From the NCBI GenBank assembly GCA_044221045.1, contig JBGAPX010000004.1:6733-70732 (forward strand): a stretch of 64,000 nt of DNA, in the 5' to 3' direction. Positions 1 through 6,296 of this stretch are shown in pieces. Made by a program: the position numbers and the translations under genes. How positions within the stretch are numbered: position 1 is the first letter of the stretch; each line of letters opens with the position of its first letter. Below the pieces are notes generated by a model that made no database searches, was not told the origin of the DNA, and saw nothing but the letters and a program-made list of their open reading frames with translations. This DNA is from Gemmatimonadales bacterium. Lineage in GTDB: Bacteria; Gemmatimonadota; Gemmatimonadetes; Gemmatimonadales; GWC2-71-9.

Positions 1-181
1 ACTGGCTCACCGAGCGCACCTGGTCGGTGCGGATCCGGATCCTGGCCCCCGTCAGGTCCACGAACGTGATCCACCGGGGCGCGAGCCACCGGTTGAGCTG
101 GTGCTCGATTGCCCGGGCCATCGTGGCCGAGACGGACCAGTGCCCGCACTCCGCGCAGACCAGGAAGTAGTCCGTGTTCAT
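1..181 (-). CDS. Hypothetical protein, truncated by the window edge (MNTDYFLVCAECGHWSVSATMARAIEHQLNRWLAPRWITFVDLTGARIRIRTDQVRSVSQ...)
   Basis: Hand-translated: ATG at 181-179 preceded by AGGAAG; frame open to the window edge; CxxC motif. Not in the ORF track. Confidence 0.6.
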   Translation of the reverse strand, partial: MNTDYFLVCAECGHWSVSATMARAIEHQLNRWLAPRWITFVDLTGARIRIRTDQVRSVSQ

Positions 182-206
182 CCGGCTTCCTGGGTTTGGC
201 GTGGTC

Positions 207-356
207 CTACACGGGCATCAGTACAGCGGGTGCCGCCGGACGCGCGCGGGCCGTGCGGAGCTGCGGGTAGACCGCGCGCTCCGCGGCGCGGATCGCGAAC
301 GAGGGCTCGTAGCGATCCTCCGGCGTCTCGAGCAGCAGGAGACGGATATCCAGCAT
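207..356 (-). CDS. 49-aa small protein (MLDIRLLLLETPEDRYEPSFAIRAAERAVYPQLRTARARPAAPAVLMPV)
   Basis: Perfect SD AAAGGAGG 4 nt before ATG (356-354); TAG at 209-207; 3' part of track ORF 207..491. Confidence 0.6.
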   Translation of the reverse strand: MLDIRLLLLETPEDRYEPSFAIRAAERAVYPQLRTARARPAAPAVLMPV

Positions 357-411
357 GGGCCCTCCTTTCGCGCGGGGGGGGCGGGAGTGGCGCGGCGGAC
401 GGCGTCCACCC

Positions 412-536
412 GTGCCGGGAGTCGCGTATCCGTGGTCCGCGTGGCCGTCGGCCGCCGGCCACCCCTGCCCCATCAATGGCGATCGCCCCACCCGTGACCG
501 GCACAGGTGGGGCGATCTGCCCTCGGGGACGCGACC
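412..536 (-). ncRNA. Putative structured RNA motif, copy 2
   Basis: Closing stem GGTCGCGT..CCG / CGG..ACGCGACT encloses two hairpins (481-517 with a 12-bp perfect stem; 441-462); shares flanking sequence with copy 1. Confidence 0.45.
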
Positions 537-543
537 GGATGGG

Positions 544-687
544 TCAGCTCGCCGAGGTCACCTGGGTGCCGTGGTTGTCCTGCGCATGTGTGTCCGTCGC
601 CGGGAACTGCCCGCGCGGAAACGCGGCCGGAGCCGCGCCTTGCACGCCTGGGTCCCGCGCGATGGTCGTCGAACTGCCGAGTGTCAT
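544..687 (-). CDS. Possible 47-aa small protein (MTLGSSTTIARDPGVQGAAPAAFPRGQFPATDTHAQDNHGTQVTSAS)
   Basis: GAGGA SD before ATG at 687-685; fills the gap between the two RNA motifs; no recognisable domain. Confidence 0.3.
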   Translation of the reverse strand: MTLGSSTTIARDPGVQGAAPAAFPRGQFPATDTHAQDNHGTQVTSAS

Positions 688-698
688 GCGTTCCTCAA

Positions 699-789
699 GT
701 GCCGGAAAAAAGAAAGTCGCGTCTCCGGGGCGGGTGCCCCGCCTCGATGATGAGGCGGCGGGACACGATGCCATCGGGACGCGACTCCC
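699..789 (-). ncRNA. Putative structured RNA or attenuator, copy 1, ending in a U-tract
   Basis: 15-bp stem GGGAGTCGCGTCCCG / CGG(A)GACGCGACTTTC, inner hairpin CCGCCTC-ATCATC-GAGGCGG, then TTTTTT; begins just downstream of a sigma70 promoter. Confidence 0.5.
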
Positions 790-800
790 AAGCGGGGCCA

Positions 801-829
801 ACAATACGAATGGCGCCGCGCGCTGTCAA
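801..829 (-). promoter_or_regulatory. sigma70-type promoter
   Basis: TTGACA (829-824) - 17 nt - TATTGT (806-801) in a very GC-rich background. Confidence 0.75.
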
Positions 830-842
830 TAGCCGATCCGGC

Positions 843-1580
843 TCAGTGGCCGGTGGTGTCCACGGTGAGCGAGAAGCCGTTGGCGCCCGCCTGCATCCGG
901 ACCACCTCGCGGCCGTCCTTGTCACGCACCCGCAGCATGGCGCCGGTGGAATCGGCGAGCAGCCGGACCAGGCTGCGCCCGAACTCGTCGCTGACCTTGA
1001 TGTTGGCGCCGTGCTTGTCGGCCAGGAGCTGGACCAGCTCGCCCTTGTCGCCGGTGGCCTCGACCTGGACCTTGCCGCCCAGGTCGGCGTGCAGCTCGAA
1101 GGGATCGCCCTCGCGCAGGCCGGCCTCGGCGTCGCGCGTGACCATCACCCGGCGCACCAGCCCGGACGGCTCGAAGGTGATCTCACCGAGGCTCACCCGG
1201 CCCTGCTCGCTCGGGGCGCAGCGGAAGCCGCGTTCGATGTCCATGTCGCGCCCGCCTTCGGGCTCGAGGACGCAGCTTTGGAGGGCGCGACCGGCCGGCT
1301 CGGAGGTCAGGACGACCGTCGCATTCAGTTCTGGGAGGTCGCCCGTCCGGGCGCGGCGCACCGCCACCTGCCGCAAGGTGCCCACGGCCTGGCCGTTGAG
1401 CAGGAAGGGCATCTCTGCACGGGCCGCGCCTTCGCTGGTCCAGACCGCGGCGTGCTGCACCGCGCTGGCGATGGCGTCCCGGGTGGCGGCCTTGGCTTGC
1501 CGCCCGAGCGTGATGAGCAGCATGCCGACGGCGAAGACGCCGAGGGCGCCGAGACCGATCCTGGACCAGAGGCTCTTCAT
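843..1580 (-). CDS. Hypothetical N-terminally membrane-anchored protein, 245 aa
   Basis: GGGAGG SD; N-terminal TM segment; plausible protein composition. Confidence 0.75.
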   Translation of the reverse strand: MKSLWSRIGLGALGVFAVGMLLITLGRQAKAATRDAIASAVQHAAVWTSEGAARAEMPFLLNGQAVGTLRQVAVRRARTGDLPELNATVVLTSEPAGRALQSCVLEPEGGRDMDIERGFRCAPSEQGRVSLGEITFEPSGLVRRVMVTRDAEAGLREGDPFELHADLGGKVQVEATGDKGELVQLLADKHGANIKVSDEFGRSLVRLLADSTGAMLRVRDKDGREVVRMQAGANGFSLTVDTTGH

Positions 1581-1648
1581 GGGTCCTCCCTGAAACGTCG
1601 GATGGGGCGGAATACTGGGCGCCCTACGACACGCTGCGGGGGGCAGTT

Positions 1649-2902
1649 TCAGGCTGGGACGGCGGTCCGGGCCAGCTCGCGGCCGAGGAAGTCCCGCGCG
1701 GGACCCGCCTCCGTGAGCGCCAGGGCGCGGCGCAGGGCGGCATGCGCCTGTTCCCGCTGCCCGATCTCGGCGAGAAGCCGACCCCTCGCCGCGTGGAACC
1801 AGGGGGAACGTTCCAGGGCCGGAACGCCCGCCAGCCCCTCGAGCTCCTGGAGGCCGGCCGCGGCACCGCGCAGCTCCCCGACGGCCACCGCGCGGTTCAG
1901 CCGGACGACCGGGGAGTCTTCGAGCCGCACCAGCTTGTCATAGGCGGCGACGACGCGGCTCCAGTCCGTCGCCCGGAAGGAGGGGGCGGCGGCATGCAAC
2001 GCGGCAATCTCGGCCTCGAGGTGCAGGCGCGTCACGGGATCGCCGCCGATCGCAGACGCCAGGTGGCGGAACCCGGCGGCGATGAGTCGCCGATCCCAGC
2101 GGCCGCGGTCCTGGTCCGGCAGCAGGATCAGCTGCCCGCCGTCGGCGCGCGCCGGCAGCCGCGCGGCGAGCAGGCAGGCCAGCCCGGCGAGCGCGTGCGT
2201 CGTGGATCCCTGCGTCGAGGGATGCATCGAGAGGGCCTCGGCCAGCCGCAGCGACTCGGCGCAGAGGTCGAGGCGAATCGGGTCGGGGCCGCGGGTGGGC
2301 GCGAATCCCTCATTGAAGATGAGGTAGACCACCTCGACGGCGGCCGGCAGCGCCGCCGCGAGCGCGGCACCGTCGGGAAGGAGCGCGACGAGTTGCGGCG
2401 TCGCGCGCAGGGTACGCTTGGCCCGCACCAGCCGCTGCGCAATGGCGGCCTCCTCGACCAGCAGCGCACGGGCAATTTCCCGGGCACTCAAGCCCGCTAC
2501 CAGGTTGAGGGCGAGCGGCACCACGACGTCGCGTGGGAGGGGCAGGCTGGCGCAGGTCATGAGGAGGGCGAGCAGGTCGTCGGGTACGTCGGTGGTCTCT
2601 GGCGCGGCCCGCGCGGACTCAGCCGCCAGCGCGGGCGCGAGCCGGTGGGCGGTGGATTCGCGTCGCAGCCGGTCGAGCGCGCGCCGCCACGCCGCCTGGT
2701 AGAGCCACGCCGCGGGATCCTCTGGAATCCCCCCGAACGGCCAGGTGCGGAGTGCAGACAGCAGCGCGTCCTGGATGGCGTCCTCGGCCAGGTCGAACCG
2801 CTCCGGTCCCAGCCGGCCCACGAGCGCGGCGACCACGCGCCCGTAGGCATGCCGGAACAGGTCGGCGACCAGCCCGGGGACGGCCGGCTCAGTCCTGCTC
2901 AC
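1649..2902 (-). CDS. ECF RNA polymerase sigma factor with C-terminal TPR-like extension (ECF42/DUF6596 type)
   Basis: Motifs AEDAIQDA, WPFGGIPEDPAAWL, IAQRLVRAK, YLIFNEG, DQDRGRWD, VRLNRAVA; GTG start overlaps the yciI end. Confidence 0.9.
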   Translation of the reverse strand: MSRTEPAVPGLVADLFRHAYGRVVAALVGRLGPERFDLAEDAIQDALLSALRTWPFGGIPEDPAAWLYQAAWRRALDRLRRESTAHRLAPALAAESARAAPETTDVPDDLLALLMTCASLPLPRDVVVPLALNLVAGLSAREIARALLVEEAAIAQRLVRAKRTLRATPQLVALLPDGAALAAALPAAVEVVYLIFNEGFAPTRGPDPIRLDLCAESLRLAEALSMHPSTQGSTTHALAGLACLLAARLPARADGGQLILLPDQDRGRWDRRLIAAGFRHLASAIGGDPVTRLHLEAEIAALHAAAPSFRATDWSRVVAAYDKLVRLEDSPVVRLNRAVAVGELRGAAAGLQELEGLAGVPALERSPWFHAARGRLLAEIGQREQAHAALRRALALTEAGPARDFLGRELARTAVPA

Positions 2903-3242
2903 CGATCTCGACCTCGCGCACCTCCACCCAGCCATTGTCCACGTGGGGACAGTCGCGCGCGATCGCCAGGGCGCCGTCGAGGTCGGGCGCCACGATCACG
3001 AAATAGCCGCCGACCACGTCCTTGGTCTCGGTGAAGGGGCCGTCCACCAGCCGGCCCGCCGCGTCCCGGCCGACGCGGCAGCCCACGCCGTCGCGCAGCT
3101 TGACGCCGGCCGTCAGCTTGCCCGCGGCCGCCATGCGCTCGGTCCACTCGGTGTAACGGGTCACGATGGCCTGGATGTCGGCCGGGGAGAGGTCGGCGTA
3201 GGTGGCAGGATCCTCGTGCAGCAGCAGCAGGTAGCTCGGCAT
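2889..3242 (-). CDS. YciI/DGPFAETKE family protein
   Basis: DGPFTETKDVVGGYF motif, C-terminal VEVREV; usual partner of ECF42 sigma factors. Confidence 0.9.
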   Translation of the reverse strand: MPSYLLLLHEDPATYADLSPADIQAIVTRYTEWTERMAAAGKLTAGVKLRDGVGCRVGRDAAGRLVDGPFTETKDVVGGYFVIVAPDLDGALAIARDCPHVDNGWVEVREVEIGEQD

Positions 3243-3331
3243 GATCGGCTCCGGGGTGTGGGCTCGCGGCCGCCCCCACGGCGGCCGCTCACCCTTCAGA
3301 CGGGCGAGCGGGCCCCCGCTCGACCACGCGG

Positions 3332-5707
3332 TCAGCGGGAGGGGGCCGGGAGGTCGGGGAGGCCCATCGCCGCGCGCACCGCCCGGAACCGGGGCTCGTC
3401 CCAGATGGGGGCGAACCACGAGACGTTGAGCGGCGCGGAGTACAGCATGCCATCGCGGGCCGCCTGGGCCCGTTCCAGCCAGTCGAGGGCGGCGGCGCGC
3501 TCCCCGAGACTCACCAGGCCGATGGCCACCGAGGCGGGCGAGGCCCTTCCCGCGCGGCCCTCGGCCTCGAGCTCCCGGAGCAATTGCGCTGCGCGGGGGC
3601 GATCGCCGGCGCCCGCCACCGCGGCAACGCGTACGCCGCCGAAGGGATTCTGCGGGGCGAGGCGCATGGCCTCGTCGAGGGGCTGGACGGCCTTCGCCGC
3701 ATCGCCGGTCCACAGCAGCGAGGACCCGAGGAAGGCGTACCCGGTCCACAGGCCGGGCGCGAGGTCGATGGCCCGGCGGCCGACGGCGGCGGCGGAGTCG
3801 CGCAGCCCGGCCAGGGCCAGCAGGTAGCCCAGCTCGCCGGTGACGATGGGCGACATCGGATCGATGCGCGCCGCCGCCTGCATCGCCGCGACCGCGTCGG
3901 CGGGGCGGCCCACGCAGGCGTAGAGCTCGGCGAGCCACTGGTGCGCCGAGGCGTAGGTGGAGTCGGCGGCGATGGCGCGGCGGAGCGCCTGCTCGGCGTC
4001 GGTCCAGCGGCCCAGGCTCTTGTAGAGCTGTCCCCGGGCGGCGTGCGCGTCGGCCAGGGTGCTGTCCAGCGCGAGGGCGCGCGCGGCGGCGCGCTCCACG
4101 ATGGGCAGCACCGAGTCCACGGGGGTGGGCCCATAGACCGGCAGCAGGCCGAGGGCGTCGGCGAGGCCGGCCCAGGCGCGTGCGAAGGTGGAGTCGCGCG
4201 CGATGGCCTGCTCGAAGTAGCCGGCGGCGCGGCGCAGGGACGCCTCGCCGCGCTGGCGCCAGTGGAAGCGCCCCTTCAGGTAGAGATCGTAGGCGGCCAT
4301 GTCCTCGGTGGCGCGCGTGGCGACGGGCGCGGCCGGCTCGAAGGCCACCTCGAGCGCGCTGGCGATGGCGCGGCCGATCTCCTCCTGCACCTGGAAGACA
4401 TCCTTGACCTCGCGCTCGTAGCTCTCGGCCCAGCGCACCAGGCCGTCCGACGCGCTGGTCAGCTGCACCGCCACGCGCACGCGGTCGCCGCCGCGGCGCA
4501 CCGAGCCGGCAAGCAGGTTGGCGACGCCCAGCTGGCGGGCCACCTCGCGCGGCTCAGCCGCCCGACCGCGCAGGGCGAAGGCGGCGGCGGATGACGCCAC
4601 CCGCAGGCTCGGTACCCGCGACAGGGCGATGGTGAGCTCCTCGGTGATGCCGTCGGCAAAGTAGGCGTCGGCGGAGTCGCCGCCGCTCAGGGCGAGCGGC
4701 ATCACGGCCAGCGAATTGGGGGCGACGGCGGCGGTCGCGGCGCGGCGCCCGAACAGCCACCAGGCAAGCGTCAGACCGAGCACCACGGTGGCGGCCAGCG
4801 CCGGCAGCCGCCAGCGCAGGGCGGGCGCGGCGGCGGCCCCGAGGGGGCCACCCGCGAGTGCCGCGTCCAGGGCGACGACGACCTCGTCGGCGGTGGCGGG
4901 GCGCTGGGCGGGGTCCTTGGCCAGGCAGCGGTGGACCAGGGCGGCGAGCGCGGGGGGCACCGCCGGTCCCAGCGGCTCCGGGTCGCGGGCCACGATGGCG
5001 GTGAGCAGCTCGCGCGGAGGAAGGCCGGCGAAGGGCGCGCGACCGGCGAGCATCTCGTAGGCCATCGCGCCGAAGGAATAGAGGTCGGCGCGGTGATCGG
5101 TGGCGGGATCGGCGGCCGCCTGCTCCGGCGCCATGTACCCGAGGGTGCCGAGCGACGTCCCGAGGGCGGTGAGCGGCGCGCCGCCCGAGACGGTGGGCGT
5201 CACGGGCCGCTCGTGGCCGGCCGACAGCGCCTTGGCCACGCCGAAGTCGGTGACCATGGCGGCGCCGCCGGAGAGCAGCACGTTGTCCGGCTTGATGTCG
5301 CGGTGGACCACGCCGTGGGCGTGGGCAAAGGCGAGGGCCCGCGCAGCGTCGCGGAGGATCGGCACCGCCTCCCGGGGCGGGATGGTACCGCGCTGCTCCA
5401 GGGCCGCGCGCAGCGACTCGCCCGCGACGAACGGCATGGTGTAGTAGGGGAGCTCCCCGAGCACGCCGGTGCCGAGCACCGTCACGATGTTCGGGTGCTG
5501 CAGCTGGGCGGAGAGCTGCACCTCCTGCTCGAACCGCTCGCGGTTCACGCCCGCGGCAAGCTCGGGGGCAAGGACCTTGGCGACGATCCGCCGACCGAGG
5601 CTCCGGTCGAGCGCCAGGAAGACGCGCGACATGCCCCCGCCGCCCAGTTCCCGTTCGACGGTGTACTGGGCGCCAAGGGACTGCTGCAGGGCGTCGCGGA
5701 GGTCCAT
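3332..5707 (-). CDS. Hanks-type Ser/Thr protein kinase with TM, TolB-like and TPR domains
   Basis: ELGGGGMSRV, HRDIKPDN, DFG, YMAPEQ; YFADGITEEL and AYDLYLKGR TPR module. Confidence 0.93.
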   Translation of the reverse strand: MDLRDALQQSLGAQYTVERELGGGGMSRVFLALDRSLGRRIVAKVLAPELAAGVNRERFEQEVQLSAQLQHPNIVTVLGTGVLGELPYYTMPFVAGESLRAALEQRGTIPPREAVPILRDAARALAFAHAHGVVHRDIKPDNVLLSGGAAMVTDFGVAKALSAGHERPVTPTVSGGAPLTALGTSLGTLGYMAPEQAAADPATDHRADLYSFGAMAYEMLAGRAPFAGLPPRELLTAIVARDPEPLGPAVPPALAALVHRCLAKDPAQRPATADEVVVALDAALAGGPLGAAAAPALRWRLPALAATVVLGLTLAWWLFGRRAATAAVAPNSLAVMPLALSGGDSADAYFADGITEELTIALSRVPSLRVASSAAAFALRGRAAEPREVARQLGVANLLAGSVRRGGDRVRVAVQLTSASDGLVRWAESYEREVKDVFQVQEEIGRAIASALEVAFEPAAPVATRATEDMAAYDLYLKGRFHWRQRGEASLRRAAGYFEQAIARDSTFARAWAGLADALGLLPVYGPTPVDSVLPIVERAAARALALDSTLADAHAARGQLYKSLGRWTDAEQALRRAIAADSTYASAHQWLAELYACVGRPADAVAAMQAAARIDPMSPIVTGELGYLLALAGLRDSAAAVGRRAIDLAPGLWTGYAFLGSSLLWTGDAAKAVQPLDEAMRLAPQNPFGGVRVAAVAGAGDRPRAAQLLRELEAEGRAGRASPASVAIGLVSLGERAAALDWLERAQAARDGMLYSAPLNVSWFAPIWDEPRFRAVRAAMGLPDLPAPSR

Positions 5708-5747
5708 GCGGGTCCGGGTAAGACGACCGGGCGGACGGAAAGGTTGC

Positions 5748-6296
5748 CTAGAGCTGGCCGTCGAGCCCCAGCTGGTGGTAGTAGTGCACCACCTCGTCCT
5801 GGTGCTCGAGCAGCCAGTCGATCGAGGGCTCGCGGCGCATCGCCTTGCGGAGGGCCTTGGCGGTGGCCTCGCGGTGGGTCTGGAACAGCACGCGATGGTC
5901 GAAGTCGGGAGCGTCGAGCACCGCGGGATCGAGCCAGACCGCGATGATGATCCCGAGCTCCTCCACGCGGTCCTTCGGAATGTCACCGCTGCGGACCGCG
6001 TCCAGCACCCCGTTGGCAATCGCCGCCTGCACCGTGCCCATGAAGATGTTGGTGTACCGGCTGTCGTCCACGGTCACCTTGCTCACCATCAGGGTGGCGG
6101 GCTTCACCTGGACGTCACTGTTGAGGATGGCGAAGACCCGGGTATGCCCCTTTACCTGGTCGCCGACCAGCGTGGCCAGCGCGGTGCCGACCGGTCCGTC
6201 GAGTTCGCCGATGACCACTTCCGGCTCGGCGGCGGACCAGGACGGCTCGGCCTCGACGAGGGCTTCACCGGTGCGGAGGACGATGCGCTGGGACAT
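5748..6296 (-). CDS. fae: Formaldehyde-activating enzyme (Fae) family protein, divergent paralogue type
   Basis: GEALV, KPATLMVSKVTV, MGTVQAAIANGVLDAV, EPSIDWLL; 182 aa matches Fae size. Confidence 0.85.
   Translation of the reverse strand: MSQRIVLRTGEALVEAEPSWSAAEPEVVIGELDGPVGTALATLVGDQVKGHTRVFAILNSDVQVKPATLMVSKVTVDDSRYTNIFMGTVQAAIANGVLDAVRSGDIPKDRVEELGIIIAVWLDPAVLDAPDFDHRVLFQTHREATAKALRKAMRREPSIDWLLEHQDEVVHYYHQLGLDGQL

Follow-up and report, generated by a model that had tools for sequence, protein, structure and literature searches.

A Y RNA-like leader RNA of Gemmatimonadota precedes RNA-repair genes and may be the shared regulatory leader of a regulon

To our knowledge, the switching on of RNA repair outside the enterobacteria is largely unknown, and the known sensor, RtcR, is a protein. 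Here, we analyse a stretch of 64,000 nucleotides (nt) from a Gemmatimonadales bacterium (assembly GCA_044221045.1, contig JBGAPX010000004.1, C31 below), called the window, in which the minus strand of 829–357 carries a promoter and the leader of an operon with rtcB; this leader starts with a structured RNA, designated RNA1. Several described systems come close to it. In the enterobacteria, RtcR (sigma-54, CARF) controls rsr-yrlBA-rtcBA and rtcBA, and the Salmonella operons combine rsr, Y RNAs, and rtcB (10.1101/312249). Characterised Y RNAs possess a long stem formed by their paired 5′ and 3′ ends, Ro60 contacts chiefly the RNA's 5′ strand, and bacteria conserve that strand alone (10.1101/312249 and PMC4201824). 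The Ro60-binding motif is GNCGAAN0-1G in YrlA/YrlB and GGUCCGA in vertebrates (PMC4201824). In Anabaena, the translation-stress regulon (the trn tRNA array, rtcB, and dpsA) has DNA repeats over the −10 box and the transcription start site (TSS), which are bound by a repressor (PMC8421152).

We propose that the minus strand at 829–357 holds the promoter of an RNA-repair operon, ORF2–ORF3–rtcB (ORF, open reading frame), together with its 5′ leader, and that RNA1 is the shared regulatory leader of a regulon; we put the probability of this reading at about 0.5. RNA1 is considered the common leader because it is always located behind a strong promoter and its cargo, diverse as it is, remains within RNA repair and translation stress. 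A regulatory function is favoured because the RNA is first in the transcript, the cargo follows one theme, several copies occur in a genome, and Rsr is rare among the sampled genomes. One RNA element would then mark an apparent whole regulon in a poorly studied phylum, providing a handle on the membership of the response and on its signal.

Similar to the RtcR system, the locus has an RNA-repair operon centred on RtcB, and the Salmonella Y RNAs likewise lie inside the operon (10.1101/312249); it differs in that a sigma-70-type promoter and a conserved leader RNA are present instead of a protein sensor. With the Anabaena regulon, it shares a common cis element ahead of tRNA arrays and rtcB (PMC8421152), although here the evidence favours an RNA helix, and a second conserved element occurs in a hairpin loop. 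Terminator-based leaders, such as attenuators and protein-dependent antiterminator RNAs, also combine a promoter-proximal helix with a U tract, and the relatives of our organism have a second terminator-like hairpin before the genes. However, the conserved part here is the terminator-like helix itself rather than a sensor domain, and the element complementing its 5′ strand is located far downstream, in a loop.

The closest known kind of RNA is represented by the bacterial Y RNAs (Yrn1 of D. radiodurans, YrlA and YrlB of Salmonella). RNA1 shares their architecture: it ends in a long helix of which only the 5′ strand is fixed, its interior is free, its 3′ tail is U-rich, and it is found on the same strand near rtcB and, where present, rsr. 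In contrast to the Y RNAs, most RNA1 carriers show no Rsr, the motif is GUCCCG(A), a tRNA-like module is absent, RNA1 always opens the transcript behind a sigma-70-type promoter of its own, with further leader elements after it, and its cargo extends well past rsr and rtcB. A limited literature search, which did not include Burroughs and Aravind 2016, gave no paper that connects Gemmatimonadota to Y RNA, Ro60, Rsr, or RtcB-associated RNAs; the phylum is not named by Chen et al. 2014 (PMC4201824), as far as the main text and all but one of its supplementary files are concerned.

The initial annotation, made from the sequence of the window alone, had placed a promoter TTGACA-17-TATTGT on the minus strand, which is confirmed: the site matches the consensus in 10 of 12 positions and is the sole promoter-like one in 1–1600, where shuffled sequences are expected to hold 0.1. 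It is followed on the same strand by RNA1, a spacer with ORF1, a second copy of the motif (copy 2), ORF2 (49 amino acids, aa), ORF3 (81 aa), and rtcB (410 aa), after which a convergent TerC/Alx gene comes. Since the window starts at base 6733 of C31, the operon genes are mostly located outside it, beyond the left edge, and this is why the RtcB operon could not be seen from the window. The RtcB protein matches PF01139 at 3.5e-63, and its gene is the single one of its kind in the assembly (3.6 Mb). A TROVE/Rsr gene was found in the assembly neither with the Pfam model nor by tblastn with the Rsr proteins of relatives; since the assembly is 92% complete, the absence of Rsr from the genome is not proven. 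No activator gene was seen next to the operon within the stretch examined. The features of the locus, each with its basis in brackets, are the following:

801–829, minus strand: sigma-70-type promoter TTGACA-17-TATTGT (consensus match, recurrence across the family loci)
about 706–794, minus strand: RNA1, a promoter-proximal structured RNA of 85–89 nt (fold, model R1, conservation)
544–687, minus strand: spacer with ORF1 (687–544, 47 aa, GAGGAA before the ATG; sister-species comparison)
518–536, minus strand: lineage-specific segment GGUCGCGUCCCCGAGGGCA, which imitates the 5′ strand of RNA1 (sequence comparison)
481–517, minus strand: conserved hairpin GAUCGCCCCACCUGUG...CACGGGUGGGGCGAUC, terminator-like in relatives (perfect stem of 16 base pairs, bp, in the fold)
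378–471, minus strand: long, imperfectly paired hairpin that carries (A)CGCGACUCCC(G), the box, at 427–416 near its tip (fold of the full leader)
207–367, minus strand: Shine–Dalgarno sequence AAAGGAGG (367–361) and ORF2 (356–207, 49 aa; homologue conservation)
1–181, minus strand: ORF3 (81 aa, running off the left edge of the window), followed outside by rtcB (reading frame, homologues behind RNA1 in many loci)

RNA1 is a promoter-proximal RNA helix under selection. Its 5′ strand, GGGAGUCGCGUCCCG, occupies 789–775. The closing helix of 8 bp is formed by 785–778 (GTCGCGTC, that is, GUCGCGUC) with 723–716 (GACGCGAC) and continues past a 1-nt bulge, A724, as CCG/CGG (777–775 with 727–725); the U tract UUUCUUUUUU at 715–706 comes directly after the 3′ helix strand, and the inner hairpin is variable. 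Folded alone, RNA1 reaches −51.1 kcal/mol with a z-score of −4.9, which none of 200 shuffles equals. Its identity to two sister species is 97.6% and 98.8%, while the third codon positions of rtcB differ at 86–87 of 411 sites (about 21%).

The whole locus is present in G137, a genome of the same genus, and other genomes have the identical 5′ end GGGAGTCGCGTCCCG behind a promoter, followed by a different interior and a matching 3′ strand. Model R1, built on 24 aligned RNAs (alignment A1), comprises 14 base pairs. In the own genome, it gives RNA1 59.6 bits, the next match (E 0.013, in coding sequence) being not credible. Among 101 genomes of the order, 10 give a match at E ≤ 1e-4. An exact 15-mer scan of a species-level genome collection returned at least 119 stretches, and flanks were obtained for 80. 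R1 confirms 23 of these 80, all of them Gemmatimonadota (Gemmatimonadaceae, Gemmatimonadales, Longimicrobiales, Longimicrobium); the matches from other phyla do not exceed 30.6 bits and are treated as chance. Judging by sequence, the family was thus found only in Gemmatimonadota among the loci tested. A promoter of the form TTGAYN-16..18-TAnnnT precedes GGGAG by 6–13 nt in 43 of the 55 distinct loci, and near-consensus variants occur in the other 12. In G098, three copies of the RNA are present, each with different cargo.

A looser tally was rejected as a measure of the family size. The 18-mer pattern with up to two mismatches has matches in 209 of 401 genomes; 29 such loci were read (L035–L064 without L059, which belongs to an unpublished genome), and only four of them (L037, L040, L055, and L056) combine a promoter with the partner strand, the rest lying in coding DNA. 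Because this tally is mostly chance, the model-based count is preferred. The tallies of 209/401 for the 18-mer and of 7/30 for RtcB loci and 39/201 for RtcB genomes given below include one to three unpublished genomes (G077, G203, and G358).

The pairing and covariation statistics were obtained with alignment A6 of 52 distinct members. Standard pairs occupy 92.8% of the cells of the 14-pair helix, sliding the helix partner by 1–3 columns lowers the pairing to 24–59%, and the observed pairing or covariation score is reached by none of 500 shuffles. The 5′ strand is nearly fixed across the family, as only one helix position varies. On the 3′ strand, the position opposite a fixed G is C in 26 members and U in 25, the position opposite a fixed U is A in 26 and G in 23, and another position is A in 45 and G in 6. 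The two most variable 3′ positions form 25 GU and 23 UG pairs with one unpaired case each, and in the three apical pairs, both sides are changed in 13 cells. Since G-U pairs are valid on the transcribed strand only, this variation indicates an RNA structure of the operon strand and not a DNA symmetry. The functional structured RNA proposed by the initial annotation, a minus-strand RNA whose closing stem is conserved and whose interior varies, is supported by its fold and by the pairing in the family, and homologues with strand-specific, G-U-compatible variation do exist. Its other proposal, a DNA site at a cassette boundary, is not supported, as the G-U pairs work on the transcribed strand only. 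Likewise, an integron attC or similar DNA repeat site does not agree with the one-strand G-U pairing, with the location of the only two genome copies in one leader, and with the constant position of the element behind a promoter.

The cargo of the RNA across relatives comprises genes of RNA repair and translation stress. ORF3 and/or RtcB are located behind it on the same strand in the own genome, in L006, L066, L072, L015, L018, L020, L024, and L034, and further in L037, L082, L118, L123, L134, L154, L172, L187, and others. Rsr with a vWA domain follows the RNA in L067, L074, L075, L151, and L185; Hen1 and then a Pnkp-like kinase do so in L138, and Hen1 is placed after three tRNAs in L184. Other loci carry tandem Usp together with an unknown protein of about 200 aa (L078, L083, and L084), Usp alone (L108), DksA/TraR-type zinc-finger proteins (L079 and L056), an EF-Ts domain protein (L158), a release factor-like protein of baeRF family 10 (L077), or DUF6847, ORF3, and a nucleotidyltransferase (L111). 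The association of RNA1 with repair cargo, as judged from the sequences, is non-random. Out of 201 genomes of the order, 39 have RtcB; among the 10 carriers of R1 matches, six are RtcB-positive, and a seventh (G059) has a decayed operon. TROVE/Rsr was found in six loci of these 201 genomes; in four of the six, the RNA is located upstream on the same strand, at a distance of about 0.6–1.4 kb from rsr, while one of the remaining two is cut by a contig end and the other is without the RNA.

In several loci, tRNA genes are inserted between the leader RNA and the repair genes: twelve in L073 (4696–6652, ahead of rtcB); Asp, Leu, His, Ala, and Arg tRNAs in L067 (2986–3409), followed by an HNH gene and rsr; Asp, Arg, and His tRNAs ahead of Hen1 in L184 (2515–2848 as oriented); tRNA-His ahead of ORF3 in L018 (975–1049); and single tRNAs in L154 and L157. 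Anticodon nucleases of the colicin E5 and colicin D types attack Asp/His and Arg tRNAs. The arrays suggest a supply of spare or decoy tRNAs.

Some loci have lost cargo behind a preserved leader. In L065 (G059), the leader RNA, hairpin, and box are nearly intact, and only fragments of ORF3 and rtcB are present; in L070 (G161), the same three elements are nearly intact, and ORF2 is the sole cargo left. In L068 (contig 3 of G137), the synteny with the tRNA–HNH–rsr locus of G357 stops just past the box.

The distal part of the leader was earlier described as a second, equivalent copy of the motif. Two copies are indeed present: the 5′ motif pattern, expected 0.00 times by chance in the window, occurs exactly twice in the own genome, and copy 2 (536–412) carries GGTCGCGTCCCCGAGGGCA / GGUCGCGUCCCCGAGGGCA and ...CGGATACGCGACTCCCGGCAC / CGGAUACGCGACUCCCGGCAC, repeating both helix strands. 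Their equivalence as a tandem did not hold up, since copy 2 reaches only 9.8 bits with R1 (minus strand), its 5′ strand exists in three close species only, and its 3′ strand is a family-wide box that is located in a hairpin loop elsewhere. The 12 bits scored by copy 2 on the plus strand are explained by the box being the reverse complement of the 5′ motif; an antisense gene at this place was rejected, as no promoter was seen there on the plus strand. Copy 2 alone has a z-score of −2.5, equalled by 4 of 200 shuffles, and is 92.8% identical to the sister species. The own genome, G137, and G357 all have the segment 518–536, with changes at positions 9–11; it was not found at the corresponding place in G397, G059, and G161. 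This segment upstream of the box, GGUCGCGU..., is able to pair with it, which gives the stretch the look of a second copy, and it is restricted to these three genomes and varies among them; the closing stem of copy 2 is therefore at best a lineage-specific alternative pairing.

The conserved elements behind RNA1 follow a fixed order. In most family loci, RNA1 and the box are separated by a hairpin whose stem reads GCCCCRCC...GGYGGGGC and which has a U-rich tail; its perfect stem in the own genome, given as 12 bp in the initial annotation, was underestimated and amounts to 16 bp. The stem word GCCCCACCTG occurs at 37 places in the own assembly and may be a common terminator stem of this organism. 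The box CGCGACUCCC is the exact complement of the RNA1 5′ end GGGAGUCGCG(U) and is found 300–710 nt from the RNA1 start in 36 of 52 loci examined (two of which duplicate others). The 12-nt block around it is invariant in all six aligned leaders, while its flanks vary and yet pair with each other via unrelated sequences in most loci (GAGCAG/CUGCUC, CGGGUAG/CUACUCG, GAUCACG/CGUGAUC, and UCCCC/GGGGA), from which we conclude that the box is displayed in a hairpin loop. Matched flanks average −16.2 kcal/mol versus −12.2 for mismatched ones (25 loci after removal of near-duplicates versus 600 mismatched pairs; Mann–Whitney p 1.1e-5, a value which overstates the case because the loci are related). 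This energy comparison was adopted because a count of enclosing pairs discriminated poorly (12.3 versus 8.9). As a word, the 10-mer box has 15 copies in the own genome, which is estimated to be near chance.

Transcription was assessed with four metatranscriptome runs from four studies, the contigs of which were aligned on 1–1600. Contig X15 spans 568–794 and X18 spans 614–783, so that contigs from two studies cross the U tract at 715–706. The end of X15 at 794 is located 7 nt past the −10 box, where a start had been predicted; at a depth of 2–3, it gives a weak hint of a transcript start near 794, plus read-through. Run X17 covers 1–368 (ORF2 and ORF3) and nothing between 369 and 1107, and 379–567 is covered by none of the four runs, though contigs cannot show absence. 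Contig X17 (171–368, depth 2.2) ends at 368, between the box hairpin and the Shine–Dalgarno sequence of ORF2; this end could be a processing site, which is only a hint.

We infer termination, a factor, and a direction of control. The helix and UUUCUUUUUU are present between the promoter and the genes, and the RNA contigs run across the U tract; the closing helix with its U tract may act as a leaky terminator, which would yield a short capped-off RNA plus some read-through. A factor acting in trans would read the invariant 5′ strand and set the amount of RNA polymerase or stable mRNA that reaches the cargo. Candidates for this factor might be a protein (Rsr where present) or the complementary loop box on read-through transcripts.

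Several observations weigh against RNA1 as a regulatory leader. No covariation was detected between the 5′ strand and the box, neither of which varies. That the 5′ strand is invariant follows in part from the approach itself, since the family loci were gathered with that motif and model R1 was built from them. The interior of RNA1 is not conserved and has no aptamer-like core, and RNA1 retains its own helix in the fold of the full leader. A terminator scan (with a rule of 3–8 nt for the loop) made no call at RNA1, which escapes the scan because its loop exceeds the allowed size. The RNA contigs have a depth of 2–3, and from contigs, neither ends nor strand are provable. Finally, the RNA is present in only 7 of 30 RtcB loci with 1.5-kb flanks; therefore, most RtcB genes either do without it or have a form missed by R1.

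The initial annotation could not match the RNA to a known family, and the Rfam search bears this out. Rfam 15 scans of 1–6000 and 380–860 at E ≤ 10 returned chance matches only, the best in 380–860 being miRNA hairpins with 12.6–21.8 bits against cut-offs of 44–100, and the RNA1 family is absent from Rfam 15. RF00019 (Y_RNA) has no match in the own genome; since a Deinococcus control also remained under the cut-off, this model cannot test bacterial Y RNAs. By individual features, the ends of RNA1 pair into a long stem, and only its 5′ strand is conserved (in loci gathered with the 5′ motif). It lacks GNCGAA, its GUCCCGA being one inserted C from the vertebrate GGUCCGA. In the own assembly, no Ro60/TROVE gene was found within some 4 kb on the same strand; in Rsr-bearing relatives, one is near the RNA in four of six loci and in L067, L075, L151, and L185. 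No tRNA or tRNA-like match to a YrlA-type module was obtained in the region with Rfam, or with ARAGORN on L003. We do not file RNA1 as a Y RNA, since it has neither the GNCGAA motif nor a tRNA-like module and no Rsr gene was found in this genome; the end-to-end stem, the conservation of the 5′ strand alone, and the proximity to Rsr in relatives are the features that are shared, fully or in part. The RNAs of some relatives (L071 and L073) contain GGTTCGAAGCC-like words. In L075, a tRNA-like RNA is located at 4586–4711 directly upstream of rsr; it scores 41.8 bits with the Rfam tRNA model, receives no ARAGORN call, and has normal D and T arms with a 66-nt insertion in place of the anticodon arm. 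This RNA may be the actual partner of Rsr in the species concerned.

Among the other explanations, the one that follows from this comparison is that RNA1 is a bona fide Y RNA: a small RNA, stable and acting in trans, with a helix to which Rsr/Ro60 binds, whose place at the head of operons would serve co-expression only. We consider it possible, if rather unlikely. The family pattern agrees with the end-to-end stem and the 5′-strand-only conservation of the Y RNAs, the GUCCCGA of the 5′ strand is near the vertebrate motif (PMC4201824), the Salmonella operons bring rsr, Y RNAs, and rtcB together (10.1101/312249), and the RNA is upstream of rsr in four of the six Rsr loci of the order and in the five Rsr-bearing family loci listed above. 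However, TROVE occurs in only six of 201 genomes of the order and in one of five further genomes of the same genus; no Rsr was found in the own assembly, and the 5′ strand is unchanged in such genomes. An RNA with Y RNA architecture that is sequence-perfect where no Ro60 is found would therefore have a Ro60-independent function. As a variant of the same explanation, RtcB or ORF3 would bind RNA1 in the Rsr-less genomes, using it as a tether or cofactor for RNA repair. The Usp, DksA-like, EF-Ts-like, and Hen1–Pnkp cargo has no known link to Rsr, the GNCGAAN0-1G motif and a tRNA-like domain are absent from RNA1, and the separate tRNA-like RNA adjoining rsr in some Rsr loci could be the true partner. 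The Y RNA and regulatory-leader readings are not mutually exclusive, and the RNA1 family bears on the origin of Y RNAs in either case. A doubtful proposal, which we hold to be more clearly unlikely, is a protein-independent RNA switch of an RNA-damage regulon: the 5′ strand would toggle between its wobble-weakened 3′ strand (terminator, short RNA) and the 10–12-nt loop box of read-through transcripts from the same or sister operons. The one 5′ strand that varies, in L105, has no usable box to compare, a box-like word there lying inside the ORF3 coding sequence, and a search of the own tRNAs for complementarity to the 5′ strand or box gave CGACTCCC in 1 of 36, without a pattern. If the switch were true, leaders would communicate in cis and in trans, a Y RNA-shaped module would have been recruited as a regulator, and RtcB, Hen1–Pnkp, Rsr, spare tRNAs, and stress proteins would be set without RtcR or Rsr.

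The same complementarity can be read at the level of DNA. The invariant 15-mer (+3 to +20) and the inverted box would then be operators for a translation-stress repressor, the RNA helix being secondary. The motif has a fixed distance from the −10 box and is near-constant in members in which the RNA partner strand varies, the box is its exact reverse complement and equally invariant, and the arrangement resembles that of Anabaena, in which the trn operon and rtcB have repeats over their TSS. Nevertheless, the changes of the 3′ strand are nearly all transitions that keep G-U pairs on the transcribed strand, which argues for selection on RNA; the box is enclosed by stems that its flanks build from unrelated sequences, needless for a DNA operator, and the spacing between motif and box ranges from 300 to 710 bp. 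This makes operators quite improbable. Hardly credible is an ordinary 5′ untranslated region with terminators and two small genes, in which the resemblance of the copies is a functionless local duplication. It would fit the fact that ORF2 is a real conserved small gene, that the inner hairpin, with 37 occurrences of GCCCCACCTG, may be a common type of terminator, and that the number of 10-mer boxes is near chance. It is opposed by the conservation of the RNA over two orders of the phylum with structure-preserving changes, by the non-random association with repair cargo, and by RNA1 and copy 2 being far better kept than the spacer and the surrounding synonymous sites.

Each motif copy had been reported to precede a small ORF with a Shine–Dalgarno sequence. 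Both reading frames exist, and the pattern of genes does not hold for the first of them. The spacer with ORF1 shares 78.5% and 75.0% identity with the two sister species; out of 48 residues, 15 are changed, the differences are spread evenly over the codon positions as 12/7/12, and one comparison has a 3-base gap; no homologues of ORF1 were found beyond three close genomes. ORF1 evolves neutrally, in the manner of non-coding DNA, and is probably not a gene. For ORF2, the identity to the sister species is 95.3%, and homologues at 52–69% identity occur in G397, G059, and G161; its N-terminus MLDIRxLLL..PEDRYxPS is kept via synonymous changes, including an AGC/TCG serine switch. By this sequence evidence, ORF2 is a real small gene, specific for the genus. 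ORF3 belongs to no Pfam or NCBIfam family, and a database search returned 14 unnamed homologues. Its predicted model is a small beta-barrel (pLDDT, the confidence score of the prediction, 84.7), for which no PDB match at E ≤ 0.001 was obtained, the weak rows including Rv3208A, DUF903 lipoproteins, and Hfq.

To the left of the window, the spacer between ORF3 and rtcB (C31:6581–6667) contains a G+C-rich hairpin, GGGGACGGGGGCGGAG...CUCCGCUUCCCGCGCCCC, and shows 73–76% identity to the sister species with an indel of 12–13 bases. In the sister species, third codon positions differ at 2–3 of 50 in ORF2 and at 6–8 of 82 in ORF3, against the 86–87 of 411 in rtcB; this low divergence of ORF2 and ORF3 (window 1–356, C31:6668–6913) could reflect an RNA-level constraint or a recent exchange.

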